Assembly (NCBI GenBank): GCA_022842945.1
Contig: JALHOO010000001.1
Span: forward strand, 221,830 to 285,829
Direction: 5' to 3'
DNA from: Minisyncoccota bacterium
Lineage (GTDB): Bacteria > Patescibacteriota > Minisyncoccia > Phycocordibacterales > Phycocordibacteraceae
Length of the DNA: 64,000 nt
The translations under genes were made by a program, and so were the position numbers. Under the pieces are notes generated by a model that was not told where the DNA came from, did not search any database, and worked only from the letters and a program-made list of their open reading frames with translations. This document shows, piece after piece, positions 7,942 to 38,367 of this stretch (position 1 is its first letter; each line of letters starts with the position of its first letter).

Positions 7942-8289
7942 ATGGCCCACGACGAAAACAAGTATCTGCTGTGGTGTTTTCTATGGACCACCCACAGCTC
8001 TGACAGACCGGTTAGTGATATTGCGTGCTCGTTACATAGTTCTCTCGCAAAAGGCCAGGAGTTCTGTACGAATTACTGGCGCAACATGCCGGAACACGCC
8101 CCCTCGACCTATCTTGCGCCTACAGGTACTCGCTACCTGTGCCGAGTTGATGAAAAGACTCATAGACGCATCGTGGATAGCGATATTGGCCTCTGGTGCG
8201 TAACGGTTCCTCCCAGTACAACAGAAGCACTTGCCCTTCTTCCCCCTACTGACTTTATGTCACTCACAGAGGGCAGGATGCCGGCGTAA
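7942..8289 (+). CDS. hypothetical Cys/Trp-rich small protein (cassette gene, array II)
   Basis: AAGGAG RBS 7 nt upstream of the ATG; 115 aa; lies between A5 and B2. Confidence 0.5.
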   Translation: MAHDENKYLLWCFLWTTHSSDRPVSDIACSLHSSLAKGQEFCTNYWRNMPEHAPSTYLAPTGTRYLCRVDEKTHRRIVDSDIGLWCVTVPPSTTEALALLPPTDFMSLTEGRMPA

Positions 8290-8405: not shown

Positions 8406-9773
8406 CTACAAATACGACATCGGATTCAAGTACGCACTCGGAGGAGCAACCGGCATAACCGCACCTCCTGCACTGCAGCCTGTTCCGGCCGGTTGTCCCT
8501 GCTGCTTGCGCCATGCGCCAAGGTCCATAATCTTTACACCCGTTGCAACATACACACTGAAGTGGAGGTGGGGTCCGGTTGCGTAGCCTGTCATACCTGA
8601 GAGGCCGATAGTTTGGCCGGTTGAGACACTCTGTCCTGCAGATACGGTAATACTTGAAAGGTGCGAGTATGAGGTAGCAAGCCCGTTCGGGTGCTTAATA
8701 AGTACCCACTTTCCGAAGGAGAAGCATCCTGGAACAGCGTCTGTGTTTCCGGTCCCCATAACCGTGCCTGAAAGTGCTGCCTGCACCGGGGTACCGCTTG
8801 GCATGCCGATATCGATAGCGTTGTGCCCGGAGCCGTTATAGATCTGTGAGTTGGCGGTTGCAAACGCCGTGTTGCCGAAATACTGCGTTATGCAGCGCGG
8901 GTTCCCCAGTGCCCCTGCCTTCCCTTCGCACGCTGCAGCAAAGCTTGGAGAATATGGCCACGCAAGCACGCCCGTTTGCACGGTAGGCACCTCAGCCTGC
9001 CCCACGGCCTTAAGACTGTTCTCAAGACTTGAGAGTGCCTGCTCGAAGAGTGCACGCTCTGCACGCTTCCGGGTTATGAGATCCTGGTACACGCTCTCCT
9101 GGTTCTTGGTCTGTGAGAGAAGCCTATCCTTCTCGCTCTTCTGCACATCAAGAGACTGCTTCTGGATACCAAGATCGCTCGCAAGGTTGGTAAGTTCGTT
9201 CTTCTTTGCGTCAACGTCCTGAAGCTGTGCACCAAGCGCATCCTTCGCTTGTGAGAGATTCGCTACGTTCGCACGAAGCGCCGTATTCAACGATGCTGCG
9301 TCGTCAATTGCCGTCCACGCTTCTGTGAGGTCGCCAGACGCAAACACCTGCTCAACGAGCGAGATCTCTCCGGCTTCTGCCATATTCCGGATAGATTCCT
9401 CAAGGGTACGCTTGTCGAGAGCGATAAGTTGCTCGGTGTCCTCAATGTTGTACGAGAGCTCGTTCAACTGAAGATTCGTAGAGGAAATCCTCGTCTGTGT
9501 AAGGTTAATCTGCGTGCTCGTCTGCTGGCGCGTTATATCAATAGACTTAATAGCGGTCTGCAGTGTCTGAGACTGTCCGTTCAAAATAAGGCGCTGGCGC
9601 TCTGCCTCTGCAATCTCGGCCTCCAAATCTTTAATCCTCTGTGCGTGCTCACTTATCTGGCTTTTGATCTCGTCTTCGCTCTGTGCAAAGGCTCCTTCCG
9701 GTACAACGGCACCTATACCGGCACACGCAACCAGAAGAACGAGAAGAAAGGATAAGGAACGCAAGGTCTGCAT
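8406..9773 (-). CDS. M23 family metallopeptidase with N-terminal coiled coil (EnvC/LytM-like murein hydrolase)
   Basis: Signal peptide, long coiled-coil region, and a C-terminal M23 domain with HxxxD (GHNAIDIG) and HLH (GPHLHFSV) motifs. Confidence 0.8.
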   Translation of the reverse strand: MQTLRSLSFLLVLLVACAGIGAVVPEGAFAQSEDEIKSQISEHAQRIKDLEAEIAEAERQRLILNGQSQTLQTAIKSIDITRQQTSTQINLTQTRISSTNLQLNELSYNIEDTEQLIALDKRTLEESIRNMAEAGEISLVEQVFASGDLTEAWTAIDDAASLNTALRANVANLSQAKDALGAQLQDVDAKKNELTNLASDLGIQKQSLDVQKSEKDRLLSQTKNQESVYQDLITRKRAERALFEQALSSLENSLKAVGQAEVPTVQTGVLAWPYSPSFAAACEGKAGALGNPRCITQYFGNTAFATANSQIYNGSGHNAIDIGMPSGTPVQAALSGTVMGTGNTDAVPGCFSFGKWVLIKHPNGLATSYSHLSSITVSAGQSVSTGQTIGLSGMTGYATGPHLHFSVYVATGVKIMDLGAWRKQQGQPAGTGCSAGGAVMPVAPPSAYLNPMSYL

Positions 9774-22651: not shown

Positions 22652-23608
22652 CTAGGACACGCCAACCGCTCGACGAACCTCTTCCATCTTCACGTTTGCA
22701 CGTTCGCGCGCAAGCTGCCCGCCCTTCTCAAGTACGTCTAGAACGGTGCGCGGATCGCTTGCTAACTCATGGTATCGCTCACGGAGGGGGGCGATAAAAG
22801 CATCAAGGTCTTCGATGAGGGCTTCCTTGAGTGCCTTGTACTTCCCTGTGTGCTCCGTGTACAGAGACTCAAGCTCGTGCTCGGTCTTTAAAAGCTTATG
22901 GATGGCGTACACGTTCTCAGGACGATCGCTTCCAGAGTCTGTAACGATGCTCATAACGAGTTCCTCAATATCTGTACGTGAAGAGAAGAGCGGAATAGTG
23001 TTGTTGTAGCTTTTGCTCATCTTCTGTCCGTCGAGACCTGGAACAACGGCAACCTCAGGAACGATGAACTCCTCAGGAAGCGTGAAGGTCTCGCCGAAGG
23101 TACGGTTGAACTTCTCAGCGGTGTCGCGCGCGAACTCAATGTGCTGCTTCTGGTCATGTCCCACAGGAACCTTTGCGGTGTTGTAGAGGAGGATGTCTGC
23201 CGCCATGAGCATCGGATAGTTGAAGGTTCCAACAGACACCTCTTTGTTCTTCGCTTCTCCATCTTTGAACGCATGTGCGCGCATGAGGTACGGCATGGTG
23301 GTGATGGTGTCGAATATCCATGCGAGCTCGGTATGCGCCGGCACGTCAGATTGCTTGAATAGCACCACCTTCTCGGGATTAAGTCCCGACGCCATGTAGG
23401 TTAGGACGAGCTCGCGCGTAAGGTCGCGCATGTCGCCTGCGTTCTGTACGAAGTTAAGCGCATGGTAGTCCGCAACCATGATGTAGCTCTGGTGGCTCCC
23501 AACCGTCTGAAACTCTACGAGCTGCTTAATAGCACCGAAGTAGTTCCCGATGTGCGGTACACCGGTTGGTTTAATGCCTGAAAGAAGGATGGGCTTGTCT
23601 GTTTCCAT
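22652..23608 (-). CDS. trpS: tryptophanyl-tRNA synthetase
   Basis: HIGH motif (GVPHIGNYFGA) and KMSKS motif. Confidence 0.85.
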   Translation of the reverse strand: METDKPILLSGIKPTGVPHIGNYFGAIKQLVEFQTVGSHQSYIMVADYHALNFVQNAGDMRDLTRELVLTYMASGLNPEKVVLFKQSDVPAHTELAWIFDTITTMPYLMRAHAFKDGEAKNKEVSVGTFNYPMLMAADILLYNTAKVPVGHDQKQHIEFARDTAEKFNRTFGETFTLPEEFIVPEVAVVPGLDGQKMSKSYNNTIPLFSSRTDIEELVMSIVTDSGSDRPENVYAIHKLLKTEHELESLYTEHTGKYKALKEALIEDLDAFIAPLRERYHELASDPRTVLDVLEKGGQLARERANVKMEEVRRAVGVS

Positions 23609-23676
23609 TGGGTATCACGATACCACGTCCTCCCTAAAGAAAAACCGCGGACCTTTGGTCCGCGGCATTCCGTTGT

Positions 23677-23916
23677 TCAAGGACGGCTGATTCCCGTGAT
23701 CAGAGCAAGGACAACATTGCCCTCGCGCTCGGGAAGCTCAACCTGAGAGCCGGCCTTCTTTCCCAGAAGCAGGGACGACCAGCAGCGGGTATTGCCAGTT
23801 GGGGTGACCGTGAAATCCTGGGGATCTCCATGGTCTCCTGCACCGACGAATTCCAGCCGAAGCTTGTCGCCTACTTGAACCACCCGCTGTGCGGGCTCGA
23901 GAGTACGTACGTTCAT
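23677..23916 (-). CDS. hypothetical small protein in high-GC islet
   Basis: AAGGAGGG RBS 4 nt before the internal Met (MNVRTLEP...); GC content is well above the window average. Confidence 0.35.
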   Translation of the reverse strand: MNVRTLEPAQRVVQVGDKLRLEFVGAGDHGDPQDFTVTPTGNTRCWSSLLLGKKAGSQVELPEREGNVVLALITGISRP

Positions 23917-24181
23917 GACACCCTCCTTCAAGGATCTAGCCGTAGTGGCTTTGTCTGCATACTAGAACTTCGCATGACGCACCGAAGGTTTCCAAACAAG
24001 AACGTCCCGCATATAGCGGGACGTTCTTTTGGTGCAGTTAGTGCGAGTGCACTGGAACCAAATCATCACAGAACTACGAGAATTGGCCGAAATCTGGGAG
24101 GTGCTCGAAGATCGTCAATAAGAAAAGACCCGCCATAGTCGTAAGACAATGGCGGGCCGATAGACTGTCGATGGTGGCCAG

Positions 24182-24631
24182 CTAGCCTGACTCCTGATAC
24201 TCCTCGAGCACGCGGATGAACGGATACTGTTGGGCGCTGAACGCGTAGCCGCGCAGCAAGTCCTTCATTCCCCGGTACTCCTCACGGTGTCCGGTGTTGA
24301 TGGAAATGCGATTCGACCACCAGTAGAAGCCGAACCCCTGCGCAGCGATAAACTCGCGGTAATGGGTCGACTCGAACTGAACGAGTCGACAGTTCAGTGC
24401 CGCACGAGCTCCGGACGTAATGCAGACACGCTGGGGTCTCGTGTCGACAGTCGACACGAAGTCCCACGGCGCATGCGCGTACCAGCCGGCGTCACGCTTG
24501 CCCAGTTCCCCGGTGAAGGGGTTCCAGGTGAGGGCGATGTGGTAGGGCTCGACGAAGGTGAAACTGGTGACGAGCACCAAGCACACCGCCGCGACACTCC
24601 CAACAATGCCTCCAATGACACGACGACCCAT
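24182..24631 (-). CDS. membrane-anchored hypothetical protein, paralog 1 (high-GC islet)
   Basis: Start MGRRVIGGIVGSVAAVCLVLV (TM helix). It is homologous to the upstream ORF and its ATG overlaps the upstream TAA (TAATG). The ORF-track N-terminal extension to 25018 overlaps the paralog in another frame and is likely spurious. Confidence 0.45.
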   Translation of the reverse strand: MGRRVIGGIVGSVAAVCLVLVTSFTFVEPYHIALTWNPFTGELGKRDAGWYAHAPWDFVSTVDTRPQRVCITSGARAALNCRLVQFESTHYREFIAAQGFGFYWWSNRISINTGHREEYRGMKDLLRGYAFSAQQYPFIRVLEEYQESG

Positions 24632-25103
24632 TACTGGGTCACCGGCGAGGCCGACGGATCGCCGCCTGGGGCTTCCTCGTTGCGAAGCTCGCGCAGGATG
24701 GTCAGGAACGGATAGGTCCGGCCGCTGCCATCGTAGGCGTAGCTCTTGAGGATGTCGTTGAGCGCGGCCTGGCCGTAGTCGCCGCGGCCGTGCCAGGACA
24801 GGAACAGTTCCAGGCCGGCCGAGTTGAATCGGACCAGCTTGCAGTTCAGCACCCGCTGGTTTGCGTTGATGCAGACCTGCATCGGCCGACCGTCGATCAC
24901 ATAGATCTGCTGGAGCCACGGAGTCTTGTGGTTCCAGCCGGTCCGAGCCAGCGGACTGATCCGGCCGGTCGTCGCGTCGAATTCGTAGCCGTGCTGATAG
25001 TTGTCGACGAAGCGCCACGAAAGGAGGAAATAGGTACCTCCCGCCAGTGCCGCAAACGCCAAGGCGACGCCGGCGATGAAGCCGATAAGCGTTCTATTCA
25101 TAC
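24631..25103 (-). CDS. membrane-anchored hypothetical protein, paralog 2 (high-GC islet)
   Basis: GGGAGG RBS then MNRTLIGFIAGVALAFAAL. Shared motifs with paralog 1: FV(D/E)xY, QVCI/RVCI, LNCKLV/LNCRLV. Confidence 0.45.
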
Positions 25104-25273
25104 TAGCCTCCCATCTCAAAGTTCGAGACAAGCACGGACAAGACCGTGCAGGTTGACGACGGATGTCGTTCCAGCACTTTTATATAACAATATTAGGCAC
25201 TATGTCAAGTCTCTAACCCCACCCAGACCAAAGCACCCTATAGGGTGCTTTGGTTCCAAAACTCTTCTTAGGG

Positions 25274-25356
25274 TGCGCCGGGGAGGATTCGAACCTCCGA
25301 AGCCGTGAGGCGACAGGTTTACAGCCTGCATGTTTTGACCACTTACCTACCGACGC
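25274..25356 (-). tRNA. tRNA-Tyr (anticodon GTA), class II with long variable arm
   Basis: Acceptor stem GCGTCGG/CCGGCGC, anticodon loop CTGTAAA and T-arm GGAGG-TTCGAAT-CCTCC; CCA not fully encoded. Confidence 0.75.
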
Positions 25357-26129
25357 GTCAAGCTCTCGTACCGGTTCTGGTGCTTCGCATTCATAGGCTG
25401 AATCTCTGCGAAGAATCTCTCCACATCGTCTCGCTTCGTTACATAAATGCAATCTGAACTCAGCTCCGATACTCGATATCCTAACCTTCGCAACATAGCC
25501 TGTAAAGCGAGAAGCAGCGGGATCGACTTATTGGTAAAGGACAGCTGCACGCCGAATCGAAGCTTATAGACCGAGCCGTCCGTATCAAAGAACCCTCTCA
25601 GGAAGGAACGCATGTATGCTTCCTTCTCAAACAGCCATCCAGGCACACCCACTTGAGCTGCCACCTTGTTTGATACCAGTCCTTGGACAATAAGCCATCG
25701 GGTAAGCTCGACCGAACCTATGTACACATCGTGAAAACCATTACTTCTGTGGCAAATAGTTGCAGGAACCTTGAACAGAGAAGTCATGAGCGCTTGCACG
25801 TAACAGACGTAGTTATATTCCTTAGTTCCGAGGGTAACGAATGTCTGATACGTGCCTACATGTCCATCACCTAGCATAATCCCGAAGAATTCAGCGAGGT
25901 CCTCTGACCGTTTTACGGGAATAGTAAGGTCAGTACGTTTTCCAAGATAGGTGCTCTTGAGTTCAGGACAGGTGGGTATTGCTAGACGCTTCAGTCTATC
26001 GAATACCGTTTTGGATGATATAGAAAGAATCGCCCCGACCTCATTAATAGTCTTATTCTGACGAACATAAAGCTCGAGCAGTGCTTCTCTATGTAAATCC
26101 TCCTCTTCAGTTGTCCATCTCCTTGCCAT
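25347..26129 (-). CDS. LAGLIDADG family homing endonuclease with N-terminal HTH domain
   Basis: Two LAGLIDADG-type motifs (FFGIMLGDGHV and GFFDTDGSV) and an N-terminal HTH (INEVGAILSISSKTVFDRLKRL). The 3' end overlaps the tRNA-Tyr 5' end by about 10 nt. Confidence 0.65.
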   Translation of the reverse strand: MARRWTTEEEDLHREALLELYVRQNKTINEVGAILSISSKTVFDRLKRLAIPTCPELKSTYLGKRTDLTIPVKRSEDLAEFFGIMLGDGHVGTYQTFVTLGTKEYNYVCYVQALMTSLFKVPATICHRSNGFHDVYIGSVELTRWLIVQGLVSNKVAAQVGVPGWLFEKEAYMRSFLRGFFDTDGSVYKLRFGVQLSFTNKSIPLLLALQAMLRRLGYRVSELSSDCIYVTKRDDVERFFAEIQPMNAKHQNRYESLTRR

Positions 26130-27450: not shown

Positions 27451-28083
27451 CTACCCTAAATGGGCGTGGTCGTTCCAGGTCAGAAGCCTCCAAGGCTTTC
27501 TGTTGGTCGGATCAAACTGCAGAACAGTTAGGCCGGTGTTGCTGGCAATAAATGCTTCGAGGATATGGCCGCAGTCTTTGCCCGTTAGTTGCTCTCCAAA
27601 GACTACCTGCGCCACGATATTTCGGAGAAAGACTCCGTGCGTAACAACGAGTATCTTGTCTTTCGGATGGTTCTCTAAGAATGTGAGTGCACTCGCTGTA
27701 CGTACATTCAGATCGTCAAAGTTCTCCTCGTCTGAGAATCGCATTCCGGGAATGCTCGAGCTCTGCATGATTGCTTCTTCTGCCGCCCTCACGAGAGGAT
27801 CGTCCTTTGGTCTATCAATCTGCTCGGTTGGTCTGCGCCGCTCAACGAAGAGCTCAGAAGACTCAACAGGAAGACCGATTCTGTCCGAGATTATCTCTGC
27901 GGTCTGCTGAGCACGAATCATGGTGCTCGCCAGAAGTGCCTCGGGTTTCAGTCGTGCGGCGCGCTCTGCCATCTGTGCGGCTTGCGCACGACCAAGTTCA
28001 GTTAGCGGCGTGAATTCGTTCTGATAGTGCGTGCCTGCATTTCCCTCGCTTTCGCCATGGCGTACGAGGTAAATCTCTTTCAT
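27451..28083 (-). CDS. histidine phosphatase (phosphoglycerate mutase-like) family protein
   Basis: RHGESEGN catalytic motif at the N-terminus. Confidence 0.7.
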   Translation of the reverse strand: MKEIYLVRHGESEGNAGTHYQNEFTPLTELGRAQAAQMAERAARLKPEALLASTMIRAQQTAEIISDRIGLPVESSELFVERRRPTEQIDRPKDDPLVRAAEEAIMQSSSIPGMRFSDEENFDDLNVRTASALTFLENHPKDKILVVTHGVFLRNIVAQVVFGEQLTGKDCGHILEAFIASNTGLTVLQFDPTNRKPWRLLTWNDHAHLG

Positions 28084-28086
28084 ACT

Positions 28087-29715
28087 CTAGACCGGAAGCT
28101 CAACGACAAACCGAGAGCCCTTTCCTTCTCCCTCAGACTCTGCCCATACCTTTCCGCCATGTGCCTCAATGATGTTCTTAACGATGTAGAGACCGAAGCC
28201 GGTGGACTCAACGTTAATCTTGGTTGAGTTTGCTCCGTGTCCGCCCTCTGTAAAGAGGTGGTCCATATCCTCTTTGGTGATGCCTACGCCTGTGTCTTCT
28301 ACCGTAAAGCGTACAGTCTTTCCTTCCTGTACAAGCTTCACGCGCACCTCTCCCTTCGGTGTGTACTTTATGGAGTTATCGATAAGGTTCTTGAACGCAT
28401 TCACCAGCTGACCCTTATCTCCCGGATACATGAGAGGCGCTGAGCCTGTATCAACGGAAAGCGTAAGATTCTTGGTCTCTGCGACTGGCTTCAGATCCGC
28501 CACCGTTTCATCTACCAGTAACTTCAAATCAAACGGTTCTTTGTTGTACGTAACCTTGCCACTCTTAATGTTTGCGGCATTAAGGATTTCTTGAATGGTG
28601 TTCACCCCCTTCGTGTCTGATTTGAACCCTTCCTCAACCATAGGCTTCATAGCTTCTGGTACTGGACCGAAATCCCCTTCTCGCATCATTGAGAAGATAT
28701 TTCGCGACTTAGTTACAAAGCCCTTAATCTGGTGCGTAATGAAGTGGATAAGCGTAACCTGCTGCTTGTTTGCTTTCTCAAGATCAGAGGCAAGTTTTTG
28801 AATACGTTCGCGTTGCTCAACTTCACGCCGTACGCCCTTGATGAGGAAATAGCCAATGATGCTGAAGAGTACCAGGTTAACAATGATAATCAGACGCATA
28901 TTCTCAACGGACCGTACAAAGAGTTGGAAGAACGTAAGGAGCCAAAGTGAGATAACTAATGCCTGCGCTCCCAGAATCTTTACATTAAAGGTTCTGAATC
29001 TGATTGTCGTATACGCTAGGAACGCGATAAATATAGGCATGCCAATCAAGCCTATCTGTGCAAGTTCCCAATCCTCGGTAAGGCTACCGATAATATTTCC
29101 GGAAGAGAACGCGATCAAGAAAATGATGATGCCTGTAGTAAAGAGCTTAATCGGCGCTCTATGCCCCGGTGTTCTTGCAGCCTCTCGAAATGCAACAAAC
29201 AGAATAGACAGTGCAATAAGTATTTGAACCGCGTAACTGTAGAAAATGATAAACGGAGCTTCAAGTGCATTGCAGTAAGCGATGTCTATACCCTGAAGAG
29301 CGTAACTGGTAGGTATAACCGCGACAATGGGTAGAATAATTAACGCGAGAATTGATATGAGTACTGGGTGTGGGTCCTTATTTGCTATGAACGTATACGA
29401 CAGGCAAAACGCAGATGCGTAAAAGAGTGCCTCGAGAAGAATCTGGATATTCCAAAGGAAAAGGACCAAATCAGGTCTGTTCGAAGCCCAAAGCAACGTA
29501 TCGATAACCGTCCATATCGAGAAAAGAAAGATAGTAACAAACAGCCAGCGTACCGTGCTGTTCTCTCGTATGCGTCCAATAAGGGCAAGGGCAAATACAA
29601 CTGCCGCTAGAATCGCAACCAGATGCGAATAATAGTGGAGTGAAGGGATGTTGGATGAGAAGAGGAAGTACAGCGGCGCCTCCCAGGGACAAAGTAAATC
29701 CATAGTCTCAAGCAT
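28087..29715 (-). CDS. membrane sensor histidine kinase
   Basis: About 8 N-terminal TM helices, HisKA-like region and an HATPase_c G2 box (STGFGLYIVKNIIEAHGG). Confidence 0.7.
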   Translation of the reverse strand: MLETMDLLCPWEAPLYFLFSSNIPSLHYYSHLVAILAAVVFALALIGRIRENSTVRWLFVTIFLFSIWTVIDTLLWASNRPDLVLFLWNIQILLEALFYASAFCLSYTFIANKDPHPVLISILALIILPIVAVIPTSYALQGIDIAYCNALEAPFIIFYSYAVQILIALSILFVAFREAARTPGHRAPIKLFTTGIIIFLIAFSSGNIIGSLTEDWELAQIGLIGMPIFIAFLAYTTIRFRTFNVKILGAQALVISLWLLTFFQLFVRSVENMRLIIIVNLVLFSIIGYFLIKGVRREVEQRERIQKLASDLEKANKQQVTLIHFITHQIKGFVTKSRNIFSMMREGDFGPVPEAMKPMVEEGFKSDTKGVNTIQEILNAANIKSGKVTYNKEPFDLKLLVDETVADLKPVAETKNLTLSVDTGSAPLMYPGDKGQLVNAFKNLIDNSIKYTPKGEVRVKLVQEGKTVRFTVEDTGVGITKEDMDHLFTEGGHGANSTKINVESTGFGLYIVKNIIEAHGGKVWAESEGEGKGSRFVVELPV

Positions 29716-30661: not shown

Positions 30662-31738
30662 TTACAAGTAGGACTGAAGCGTGCCCTCACGGCGTACGTC
30701 CAGGGTGGCGCAATGTACTGAGCCGCCGAACGGATAGAAATTCCTAAACGGAATTGGAATTGGTTCGAATCCCCAACTCTTAAGAGCGTCGATAAGCGGC
30801 TGCTCCTGCTCCTCAACGATTATCCTTTTCTCATCGATACTCAACGTATTGATCGTAAGCCAGTCGCTAGAGAAATAGAGTGCCTTGTCTTCTGATTTTG
30901 TGGGTTCTGGTGCAATGAGCACGTCCCAAGAATCAAAGAAAGGCGGAAGCTTCTTAACCCACTCAGGATTAATAAGAATCTTTCCAGGGGCAAGCGGAAC
31001 AATGGTGGTGTCAATGTGCATCGGATGCATATCTCCGAAGTCAACCTCGTGGATCGTGAATTCCGAACCAACGTGACGTCGCACCCACTCAATGCCCTTT
31101 TCGTTCGTAACATTGCTCTTCTGTACGAACACGTCCTTTCCACAGCGGATAAAATCCGCTGCATCAAACGCAATCTCGTTCTCCGTGATTACGAAGCGTT
31201 TCTTCCCGTCCTTCATCGGTTCATTTCGGTCGTAGGTCTCATCGTAAAAACCTTCGGCCATTGTGGACTTTGGAGCCACAAGCCAACGGCCTCCCTTGTC
31301 GAAGTACTCGTTCATGAGCGGTCGATAGGCAAGATGCTCAAAATAACGTGTTCTCCACGCCATAGGCGCTTCGATTATGGTGTCGCCAAAAACCATGAAC
31401 ACGTCACGTGGCATTGCAGCGTACAGACCGCGGCTCTTCCACCATGGGGTCTGAAACTCCTTCGAGAAATCCATAGAGTCTGGCCGTCTCACTGTTACGC
31501 CAAGCTCGGTTAGCACTTTAACCAATCCATCAAGCTCTACAGTAGCCTTCTCAATCATTTCGTCCGGAAACGGCTTCCCTCCGTACTCTCTGAAAAACCA
31601 CTCTGCATGTTCAGGAGTTATGGCCTTTACCGCTTCATCAAATACAGGAACTATCGCTCCCTCAACTGAGCCAACAATTACCTCCTTCAGCGGATCCCAT
31701 TCGTTACAAGACCAAACCGGGCGCGAGAGTTCTTTCAT
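30662..31738 (-). CDS. amidinotransferase family protein (GATM/StrB1-like)
   Basis: C-terminal GGSVHCATLDVRREG, the conserved active-site Cys region of amidinotransferases. Confidence 0.6.
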   Translation of the reverse strand: MKELSRPVWSCNEWDPLKEVIVGSVEGAIVPVFDEAVKAITPEHAEWFFREYGGKPFPDEMIEKATVELDGLVKVLTELGVTVRRPDSMDFSKEFQTPWWKSRGLYAAMPRDVFMVFGDTIIEAPMAWRTRYFEHLAYRPLMNEYFDKGGRWLVAPKSTMAEGFYDETYDRNEPMKDGKKRFVITENEIAFDAADFIRCGKDVFVQKSNVTNEKGIEWVRRHVGSEFTIHEVDFGDMHPMHIDTTIVPLAPGKILINPEWVKKLPPFFDSWDVLIAPEPTKSEDKALYFSSDWLTINTLSIDEKRIIVEEQEQPLIDALKSWGFEPIPIPFRNFYPFGGSVHCATLDVRREGTLQSYL

Positions 31739-37791: not shown

Positions 37792-38235
37792 TCAGCGGCC
37801 GTCGCGAAAGATGCGGCAGGACTCGCTGGTGCGATACCGCGGATTGCGGCACATCTCGCTTTCACGCTGCGCATAGCGGCGTGCAGCGATACGCTCGCCG
37901 ATGCATTCCCTGAAGCCCGCACCCATGATGGAGGTACAGTCGACGTAGAGGTAGCCGCGACGTCCCGAGCGATACCGACGCTCGTACTCGGCACGGTCTT
38001 GCAGAGCGGCCGCTTCTTCGGCTGAGACCGCCCGGATTTCAGCCAGAACAGTCTGGCCGTCGATGCGGAGGGTCTCGTACCATTTGCCGGAGCAGATGAG
38101 GTCCACCTGCCGGGGCAGGTTCTCCGCTCGCGCCGGTGCACGGCAAGTCGTGATGTCGAGCGCCGAATCCTGGGCCAGTGCCGGAGTGACAAAGGCGCAG
38201 AAAGCCAGAGCTATCGCGATGATGATCGAACGCAT
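37792..38235 (-). CDS. secreted Cys-containing hypothetical protein in high-GC islet
   Basis: CGGAGA RBS then MRSIIIAIALAFCAFVTPALAQ signal peptide; GC about 60%; its own minus-strand terminator at 37738-37790. Confidence 0.45.
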   Translation of the reverse strand: MRSIIIAIALAFCAFVTPALAQDSALDITTCRAPARAENLPRQVDLICSGKWYETLRIDGQTVLAEIRAVSAEEAAALQDRAEYERRYRSGRRGYLYVDCTSIMGAGFRECIGERIAARRYAQRESEMCRNPRYRTSESCRIFRDGR

Positions 38236-38367
38236 GGAAAGATCTCCGTGTTGCGCGTCCCGAAGGACCCAATTGACGTTGGGTTGATAATATACCATAA
38301 TCATACAAAAGTCAATGCCTTGTGGAGATAGAACGATGGGCGCTGGGAGAGTATCCCAGCGCCCATA

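Follow-up and report, generated by a model that had tools for sequence, protein, structure and literature searches.

The locus described here, a two-gene cassette lying directly against a tRNA-Tyr gene in a member of the Minisyncoccota, invites comparison with two sets of known systems. On the DNA side these are tRNA-linked islands, mobile insertion cassettes and miniature inverted-repeat transposable elements (MITEs), and homology-facilitated illegitimate recombination, a mechanism known from the Acinetobacter and pneumococcus literature. On the protein side they are the paired SPFH proteins HflK/HflC, PHB1/PHB2 and erlin1/2, together with FliL, a single-pass protein with a bare stomatin-like extracytoplasmic domain that forms small rings around a membrane complex and is associated with the flagellar stator (PMC6426602, PMC8794807). 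We analysed 64 kb of contig JALHOO010000001.1 (positions 221,830 to 285,829 of the forward strand; assembly GCA_022842945.1), hereafter the window, following up an annotation made from the letters alone (the sequence-only reading) that had proposed a horizontally acquired, high-GC islet at 23650-25140.

We found that two adjacent genes, A and B, form a discrete insertion/deletion unit that abuts the 3' end of tRNA-Tyr and segregates as present or absent among close relatives. Structural models suggest that both proteins adopt a minimal SPFH/Band-7-type fold with no coiled coil. They belong to a previously unannotated family, carried mainly by metagenome-assembled genomes (MAGs) of the candidate phyla radiation (CPR)/Patescibacteria type, plus a few very large contigs, some of them phage-like. 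The insert itself appears to be one autonomous transcription unit, composed of a putative sigma-70-like promoter, a leader of roughly 75 nt, A, B and a terminator, and the cassette has probably long been linked to the tyrosyl-tRNA synthetase (TyrRS)/tRNA-Tyr locus of this clade, segregating there as present or absent. Its high GC content is best read as a property of third codon positions of the gene pair, seen in hosts above about 40% GC at third codon positions (GC3), and carrying no donor signature. We assign this reading as a whole a probability of roughly 0.7. The features on which it depends are as follows.

25272..25356, minus strand: tRNA-Tyr (GTA), called by ARAGORN, matched by the Rfam tRNA model at 50.9 bits and placed by the junction alignments
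24036..25271, minus strand: variable unit of 1,236 bp (GC 58.4%), an insert absent from empty-site relatives in alignments with L013, L009 and L010
24631..25101, minus strand: gene A, 156 amino acids (aa), a membrane helix plus a predicted minimal SPFH-like domain
24182..24631, minus strand: gene B, 149 aa, a paralog of A with the same architecture

tRNA genes were called with ARAGORN and checked against Rfam covariance models. The tRNA-Tyr (GTA) gene was the single tRNA called in the window, and tRNA was the sole Rfam match over 23500-25500. Since this gene lies on the minus strand, as does the island, 23650-25140 is indeed its 3' flank, as had been claimed. The insert starts right after the last base of the tRNA and ends at a second copy of GCACC (24035-24031), the proximal copy being the last five nucleotides of the tRNA itself (25276-25272). 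In the filled state, GCACC is followed by CTAAGAAG at one junction, and AACTGCACC is followed by AAAAGAAC at the other; at the empty junction, GCACC is followed by AAAAGAAC. Alignments of the empty sites in L013, L009 and L010 read ...GGCGCACC joined straight to AAAAGAACGTCCCGC..., so that the tRNA runs directly into a hairpin. The boundary repeat is thus 5 bp long; counting flanking bases, it extends to GCACCnnAAGAA with two mismatches. A hypothetical excised circle would contain CTAACTGCACCCTAAGAAG at its junction.

One empty site is that of L013, a contig whose run series also yielded the filled contigs L001-L003, which are identical to the window. TyrRS of L013 and of the window are identical at 0.986, 0.993 and 0.935 of codon positions 1, 2 and 3, and position 3 identity is 0.966 in the LAGLIDADG open reading frame (ORF) and 1.00 in a small ORF downstream. 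By these identities, taken over 2.5 kb, L013 and the window belong to one species, and L013 encodes TyrRS, LAGLIDADG, tRNA-Tyr and the small ORF without the A-B pair. Empty sites were also present in the sister species L009 and L010/L011, whose tryptophanyl-tRNA synthetase (TrpRS) genes are ~90-91% identical to that of the window at the DNA level. L012, in which TrpRS is 87% (87.4%) identical in amino acids and 79% in DNA, therefore serves as an outgroup to the window, L009 and L010. The sequence-only reading had suggested comparing the tRNA-Tyr 3' flank in relatives, and this comparison showed the pair to be absent from L013, L009 and L010/L011, but the small ORF and two of three hairpins counted as part of the islet to be present there. 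These features lie outside the insert.

23998..24028, minus strand: hairpin that directly follows tRNA-Tyr in empty sites, kept in L013, L009 and L010 after ...GCACC (fold z -7.3)
23677..23916, minus strand: small ORF of 79 aa with a strong ribosome-binding site and its own terminator (23644-23666), present in pair-less relatives

The position of the 23998-24028 hairpin directly 3' of tRNA-Tyr in empty sites indicates that it is the ancestral terminator of the tRNA. All three flanking hairpins named earlier are real (23998-24028, 24127-24158 and 23644-23666; z -5.5 to -7.3 relative to shuffled sequence), although two of them belong to the surrounding DNA. The small ORF likewise exists as described, with AAGGAGGG upstream as its ribosome-binding site, but it is no member of the islet: in the pair-less L009, L010/L011 and L013 it adjoins tRNA-Tyr and TrpRS at 74-97% aa identity. 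Its homologs form only three clusters, all from close relatives of the window. Compared with L009, its codon positions 1, 2 and 3 are identical at 0.89, 0.88 and 0.64, a divergence skewed to position 3 that points to a real gene under purifying selection. No family match was found for it in Pfam, NCBIfam, PHROGs or PADLOC, and a sequence search of the PDB returned noise; inspection by eye suggested a likeness between its C-terminal half (LLLGKKAGSQVELPEREGNVV) and the C-terminal motif of GreA/GreB, which no tool confirmed. Upstream of the small ORF, at 23936-23956, the window and L013 differ at five positions within 21 nt (GCCACTACGGCTAG versus GCCATTTGGGCTTG), in DNA that is otherwise 97-100% identical, and the window version there is closer to L010. 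A short tract of recombination or a hairpin loop that varies could account for this cluster of differences.

The description of A and B as tandem, membrane-anchored paralogs with overlapping stop and start codons was borne out. The two proteins are 29% identical by BLASTP (E 1e-15), both have N-terminal hydrophobic helices, and the motifs FVxxY, (Q/R)VCI, LNC(K/R)LV and SYA/GYA proposed for them are all present. The TAA stop of A (24633-24631) and the ATG start of B (24631-24629) share the base at 24631, giving TAATG. The gene coordinates given earlier were right for B (24182..24631) and for the end of A at 24631; the other end of A had been placed 2 nt too far, at 25103 instead of 25101. Profile-profile comparison relates A to B with a probability of 99.8% (E 1e-30). 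In a scan of one genome per species, which yielded 36 loci, A was followed by B in all 34 that were not cut by a contig end. Stop of A and start of B overlapped in 44 of 52 loci; the overlap measured 4 nt (ATGA or GTGA) at 41 loci and 1 nt at three. The constant order and the frequent overlap indicate that the duplication is ancient and the coupling conserved, in line with the earlier view that the paralogs are divergent and their duplication not recent. Between the window and L012, codon positions 1, 2 and 3 of A are identical at 0.92, 0.94 and 0.67, indicating purifying selection.

We identified 429 homologs of A and 71 of B, the named ones from Pacebacteria, Doudnabacteria, Uhrbacteria, Nomurabacteria and Parcubacteria. 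An exhaustive profile search of 1.84 billion representatives returned 245 clusters; the 150 clusters listed were all 71-240 aa long, and none of these was of canonical SPFH length. Searching PDB sequences with the A profile gave noise only. The pair lay within 500 bp of a tRNA in 6 of the 36 loci (binomial p ~0.007), with tRNA identity, side and orientation so heterogeneous that no general tRNA-Tyr rule holds across the family. Pairs also occur on large contigs. One is L008, a 563-kb JGI contig with many small co-directional ORFs, HNH, an N6_N4 methylase, a helicase, Phage_T4_Y07B, ART-PolyVal and a five-tRNA array, whose A/B junction (ACCCAGTAATGGGT) equals that of the window over 14 nt; five more are IMG/VR contigs of 162-500 kb (L050-L054). 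These observations suggest that the large contigs are either very large phages or mis-binned CPR genomes.

We utilized AlphaFold models of A (pLDDT 93.2) and B (pLDDT 85.7) to compare the proteins with known structures. Each model consists of one N-terminal membrane helix, hydrophobic over residues 3-28 in A and 2-23 in B, and a compact, beta-rich alpha/beta domain, with an extra loop or helix at residues ~100-121 in B relative to A. In Foldseek searches of the PDB, all matches of probability 1.0 for both models were SPFH proteins (HflK/C, prohibitin, erlin, stomatin and flotillin), with the vault shoulder domain next in line, and the top 24 matches of the B model were SPFH proteins without exception. 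The viral library BFVD returned Band-7 proteins of phages and giant viruses. The best local superposition gave a root-mean-square deviation of 3.5 Å over 103 columns (9l3g_A). At the sequence level, Pfam Band_7 (PF01145) gave weak, sub-threshold matches in 15 of 74 family members (best E 2.5e-4), against at most two members for any other family. Both proteins end 125-130 residues past the membrane helix, their models contain no long helix, and both lack the coiled coil. Taken together, the models point to a minimal SPFH/Band-7-type fold for A and B.

Arginines preceding the membrane helix suggest that the N-terminus lies inside and the C-terminus outside. The domain would then be extracytoplasmic and possibly disulfide-bonded through a cysteine pair (Cys77 and Cys87 in A, Cys70 and Cys81 in B) that is invariant across both paralog families. 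We propose that A and B, made 1:1 by coupling, would co-assemble on the outer membrane face into a small hetero-oligomeric scaffold, closer in kind to the ring of FliL than to the cage of HflK/C, and that this scaffold would organise or regulate another membrane protein. The proposal draws on an analogy, since coupled 1:1 synthesis resembles the HflK/HflC, PHB1/2 and erlin1/2 pairs, and the constancy of the pairing (34/34 loci) and of the start/stop overlap (44/52) lends it indirect support. Among the papers searched, none linked SPFH proteins with CPR/Patescibacteria in this sense.

A and B are the only credible genes within 24036-25271, and the remainder of the insert is made up of the following elements.

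25227..25254, minus strand: perfect palindromic hairpin of 14+14 nt, an inverted repeat (-23.5 kcal/mol, z -5.6), missing in L012
25179..25208, minus strand: putative promoter-like site, TTGACA at 25208-25203, a 16-nt spacer and TGT-TATATA at 25189-25181
25102..25178, minus strand: 5' leader containing a pair of small hairpins, its ribosome-binding site GGGAGG at 25112-25107, strongly conserved in L012
24118..24158, minus strand: intrinsic terminator that ends the A-B operon, an inverted repeat forming hairpin 24158-24127 (-23.5 kcal/mol, z -5.5) with UCUUUUCUU after it
24036..24117, minus strand: distal insert segment of 82 bp, ~45% GC, abutting the distal GCACC (24035-24031), with no counterpart in L012
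24053..24065, plus strand: one arm of a 13-nt sub-terminal inverted repeat (TGGAACCAAATCA), partner at 25246-25258, the arms lying 17 and 13 nt inside the ends

The promoter-like site, read from the sequence as TTGACA, 16 nt and TGTTATATA (25208-25181), is near consensus and is kept in L012 as TTGACATAGTACCCACTATTGTTATATAA; a consensus promoter scanner missed it because the last base of its hexamer is not T. In L004 and L070 the pair is likewise preceded by an analogous site, TTGACT...TATAAT, and in L004 a terminator hairpin also follows the pair. The leader folds with a z of only -1.6 and had no Rfam match. Homology to the L012 cassette spans the -35 box to the terminator and nothing beyond, and the tRNA-proximal 76 bp (25196-25271) have no counterpart in L012; the hairpin at 25227-25254 within them now probably terminates the tRNA transcript. 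The 13-nt inverted repeat has only two matches in the 64 kb, against 0.17 expected, and gave p = 0.009 in a shuffle test of end against end. Its motif was found in no other fetched cassette locus except that of the same strain, and we retain it as a lead only.

The cassette was found at the same place in other members of the clade. In L012, the closest known cassette at 88% aa identity, the promoter begins 4 nt after the 3' end of tRNA-Tyr, A and B follow (88.5% and 88.7% aa identity to the window), and TrpRS comes directly next. In L070 and L004, TyrRS and tRNA-Tyr are followed by short modules and then by A-B; between the window and L004, A is 62%, B 58% and TyrRS 58% identical in amino acids. 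Where measured (L012 and L004), cassette divergence matches the divergence of the host aminoacyl-tRNA synthetases. L004 carries a perfect 16-nt repeat of the tRNA-Tyr 3' end (8178-8193 and 8417-8432, ~225 bp downstream). Two short non-coding modules are common to L004 and L070 (4269-4556), with their order reversed between the two, and a copy resembling the tRNA 3' end precedes each module. Each module starts with an A-rich stretch and a hairpin, and one of them has a 3' end resembling a decayed T-arm and acceptor (p ~0.04). These modules look like the outcome of serial integration or excision at tRNA-Tyr. The tRNA-Tyr 3' end is thus a recurrent recombination site in this clade.

The window, L012, L004 and L070 carry the pair; L013, L009 and L010 lack it. 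A gain or regain in the window strain is the most likely history and is favoured over loss elsewhere by roughly 60:40, because the 76-bp tRNA-proximal segment looks like the tRNA flank of another genome with its own terminator. A cassette from a related genome would have recombined in, with the tRNA gene as its anchor on one side and the 5-bp GCACC, a core or a microhomology, as the closing join on the other; alternatively, the window strain would have retained a cassette that was precisely excised elsewhere. Our search for a donor reached at most 64% aa identity among genome contigs and 57% among metagenome contigs, and no donor was found.

We then considered the composition of the locus. The sequence-only reading had put the segment at about 60-65% GC against a background of roughly 50% and had ascribed it to a high-GC donor. 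Genes A and B together have 61.7% GC, with 400-bp windows up to 65.5% (z = 3.7, the highest value in the window, against a mean of 51.9%), so the figures fit the two genes. The span 23650-25140 as a whole, however, has 59.0% GC, and the excess is confined to A and B and mostly to position 3. GC3 is 0.83 in A and 0.77 in B, above every other gene of the window and compared with 0.50-0.65 in neighbouring genes, whereas the small ORF is ordinary (0.60), intergenic DNA has 47-51% GC, and the non-coding parts of the insert (45-49%) are like host intergenic DNA. The proposed codon-usage scan did set A and B apart from host genes, the ribosomal-protein and DnaK set included, through their use of CTG, GTC, GGC and CGG. 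Across the family, pair GC3 was above the average for neighbouring ORFs at 40 of the 48 unique loci (Wilcoxon p = 4e-10) and tracked host GC3 with r = 0.91 and a slope of 1.32 (48 loci). The excess averaged +0.16 where host GC3 was at least 0.40 and was nil below 0.40, in AT-rich hosts. A single high-GC reservoir would not produce such a pattern, and the donor claim was not upheld. Candidate causes are selection on mRNA, repeated import and recombination-associated biased gene conversion, of which the GC-biased form has been proposed for bacteria (PMC4450053). A second compositional outlier was seen at 37792-38304 on the minus strand, a 170-aa ORF between dnaJ and dnaK (GC 0.61, GC3 0.70) with a hydrophobic, signal-peptide-like stretch after an N-terminal extension of ~25 residues.

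Several observations weigh against our reading of the cassette and its proteins. Whole-chain Foldseek TM-scores were only 0.4-0.55, and A and B were unrecognised by Pfam (no match at E<=1), NCBIfam, PHROGs and PADLOC. The proposed A-B assembly is drawn from genes and single-chain models, and neighbouring genes differ at every locus, with no conserved partner gene beside the pair. Eleven of the 36 species loci are titled 'uncultured Gammaproteobacteria' or 'Bdellovibrionales' in third-party bins (loci with such titles include L019, L024, L028-L030, L032, L035, L036, L040 and L042); either the titles are mistaken or the family also occurs outside the CPR. Finally, the distribution of the pair fits one loss plus one regain (two events) or two to three independent precise losses, and deletion between the same GCACC repeats would leave an identical scar each time.

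This last point leads to the strongest competing history, in which the cassette is ancestral at the site and the empty sites of L013, L009 and L010/L011 are precise deletions between the GCACC copies, by slippage or site-specific excision. The linkage to tRNA-Tyr/TyrRS in four lineages, with housekeeping-like divergence where it was measured (L012 and L004), agrees well with this history, as does the fixed position of the 5-bp repeats, which would reproduce the same scar, and the family-wide GC3 excess removes composition as an argument for foreignness. We nevertheless consider it the less likely history. It needs two to three identical deletions, one of them within a species, as against one loss and one regain, and 5-bp repeats 1.2 kb apart are a poor substrate for deletion. 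Moreover, the filled allele carries a second, redundant hairpin on the tRNA side, along with flanks of 76 and 82 bp for which neither L012 nor the empty sites offer an equivalent, and these look like a donor tRNA flank.

A more ambitious synthesis would join all parts of the locus. A and B would be an unrecognised minimal heteromeric SPFH ring without a coiled coil, possibly disulfide-stabilised, that is specific to ultra-small CPR bacteria and is carried as well by very large phage-like genomes; the cassette would move into and out of the tRNA-Tyr 3' end independently of an integrase, or by a mechanism acting in trans, through a core of ~5-6 bp, GC(G)CAC(C); the same process would have left behind the shuffled modules of L004 and L070, with their tRNA-3' repeats; and GC3 would be a footprint of unusually frequent recombination, through GC-biased gene conversion, or of mRNA selection. 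We regard this combination as speculative and rather improbable.

We judge it very unlikely that the high GC3 reflects translational codon bias of a very highly expressed operon. In L007, EF-G, S7, L28 and HU have a GC3 of 0.72-0.75 against a locus mean of 0.66, with the pair at 0.79-0.82; the ribosomal-protein and DnaK set of the window is slightly above average; and the promoter-like site of the cassette is near consensus, all of which would fit strong expression. The codons themselves do not. Compared with the ribosomal-protein/RpoA/DnaK set, the pair uses Leu CTG at 0.46 versus 0.03, Val GTC at 0.53 versus 0.12 and Arg CGG at 0.25 versus 0.00; its log-likelihood under the high-expression codon table (-1.26) is worse than under the ordinary one (-1.18); and its GC3 lies above that of every gene in the window. 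On this codon table comparison, expression bias was rejected as the cause for the window, with L007 partly consistent with it.

The view of the locus as a classic tRNA-adjacent islet, targeted by a site-specific recombinase and representing a recent import from a remote donor of high GC content, for example an actinobacterium, survived in part only. A strain-variable unit does abut tRNA-Tyr: it is inserted exactly at the tRNA 3' end and absent in close relatives, its GC3 (0.77-0.83) and codon preferences are unlike those of the host, and the 16-nt tRNA-Tyr repeat of L004 shows that att-type events occur at this tRNA. The unit extends, however, over 24036-25271, with no integrase in or beside it. 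The sequence-only reading had proposed looking for a partial tRNA direct repeat at the distal boundary; searches with tRNA k-mers (exact and with mismatches) over 18-32 kb and alignments of the insert ends with the tRNA 3' half found nothing past GCACC, a repeat of 5 bp, and the distal end holds no tRNA-like remnant (p = 0.95). Non-coding parts at 45-49% GC, a GC3 excess that is family-wide and tracks the host, named homologs that are all from CPR with none from high-GC phyla, and nearest cassettes that sit at the same locus in relatives with host-like divergence also speak against such an import, which we consider highly improbable. Although GC-rich DNA gives long chance ORFs and alternative-frame and antisense ORFs of 60-278 aa overlap the region, the possibility that A and B are themselves spurious frames is negligible and is refuted by how the genes are conserved: homologs number in the hundreds and share invariant residues, position 3 varies far more than positions 1 and 2, the models are confident, and gene order and start/stop overlap are conserved.

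The surroundings of the cassette showed some further variation. A free-standing LAGLIDADG_3 homing-endonuclease-like ORF of 260 aa with an N-terminal helix-turn-helix (25347-26129, minus strand) lies between TyrRS and tRNA-Tyr, its final codons and stop overlapping the tRNA by 10 nt at the start of the tRNA gene. The ORF lies outside the insert and is split into three pieces in L009 (2338-3251). As a driver of the insertion this endonuclease was ruled out, because the empty-site L013 has an undamaged copy of its gene. A second strain-level difference lies upstream of TyrRS, where L013 (162-1501) has a NUDIX gene and a 279-aa His_Phos-like gene, and the window at the same position (27451-29715) a 210-aa His_Phos_1 gene and a 542-aa histidine kinase. 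An isolated 11-mer at 30762-30772 on the plus strand, GGTTCGAATCC, equals the tRNA-Tyr T-arm; ~0.5 chance matches are expected in the region searched, and no tRNA was called there.

The novelty of these findings lies in the protein family, in which two minimal membrane proteins of SPFH fold form an obligate, translationally coupled pair, mainly in genomes of CPR type; the family-wide amplification of GC3 is also new. Much of bacterial diversity belongs to the CPR/Patescibacteria, whose membrane proteome is for the most part unannotated. A recurrent two-gene module of 'hypothetical' proteins here gains a likely fold (SPFH), an architecture (an obligate paralog pair with no coiled coil) and a testable model. 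The locus also carries a caution for genome scans: a GC peak beside a tRNA mimicked a textbook foreign island, when its composition is a gene-family trait that scales with host GC3, and the proper evidence for mobility is the empty sites in relatives, not composition. Small but genuine puzzles are posed by the family-wide GC3 amplification and by an insertion that is precise to the tRNA end without an integrase.

When set beside known mobile systems, the cassette resembles tRNA-linked islands in its insertion at a tRNA 3' end, its presence/absence polymorphism, its atypical coding composition and the genuine 16-nt tRNA-Tyr 3' repeat at the same tRNA in L004. It differs from them in having no integrase in the insert, a 5-bp repeat (15 nt or more is typical), a single two-gene operon as payload, and a compositional anomaly that is intrinsic to the genes rather than derived from a donor. 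Mobile insertion cassettes and MITEs share with it a short direct repeat (5 bp) and an inverted repeat (13 nt) near both ends, but here the inverted repeat lies 13-17 nt inside the ends and is not terminal, the unit is single-copy in the window, the motif is absent from other cassettes, and no matching transposase was seen. A further parallel may be homology-facilitated illegitimate recombination during natural transformation, a concept used in PMC6382021. The tRNA would serve as the anchor on one side and GCACC as the microhomology on the other, and the left 76 bp resemble the tRNA flank and terminator of another genome; the join, however, coincides exactly with the tRNA end, as would also be expected from a site-specific core, and no donor was found.

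Among proteins, the best fold matches of A and B are with HflK/HflC, PHB1/PHB2 and erlin1/2, with which they share an N-terminal membrane anchor, an SPFH alpha/beta domain and an organisation as two diverged paralogs side by side, presumably in equal amounts. A and B are about half the size (about 150 aa versus 270-420 aa), have neither the CC1/CC2 coiled coil nor the C-terminal cap, so that a 24-mer cage could not form in the same way, and carry an invariant cysteine pair; unlike for HflK/HflC, no FtsH or NfeD partner gene lies near them in the neighbourhoods examined. FliL differs in other respects: the fold match to 7sgn is marginal (E ~2, probability 0.08), there is no FliL Pfam match, flagellar genes were found in none of the A-B gene neighbourhoods examined, and FliL is a single gene rather than an obligate paralog pair. 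In architecture, though, FliL is the closer likeness, with one transmembrane helix and a bare SPFH-like domain of about 100 aa that, as in A and B, stands without a coiled coil.

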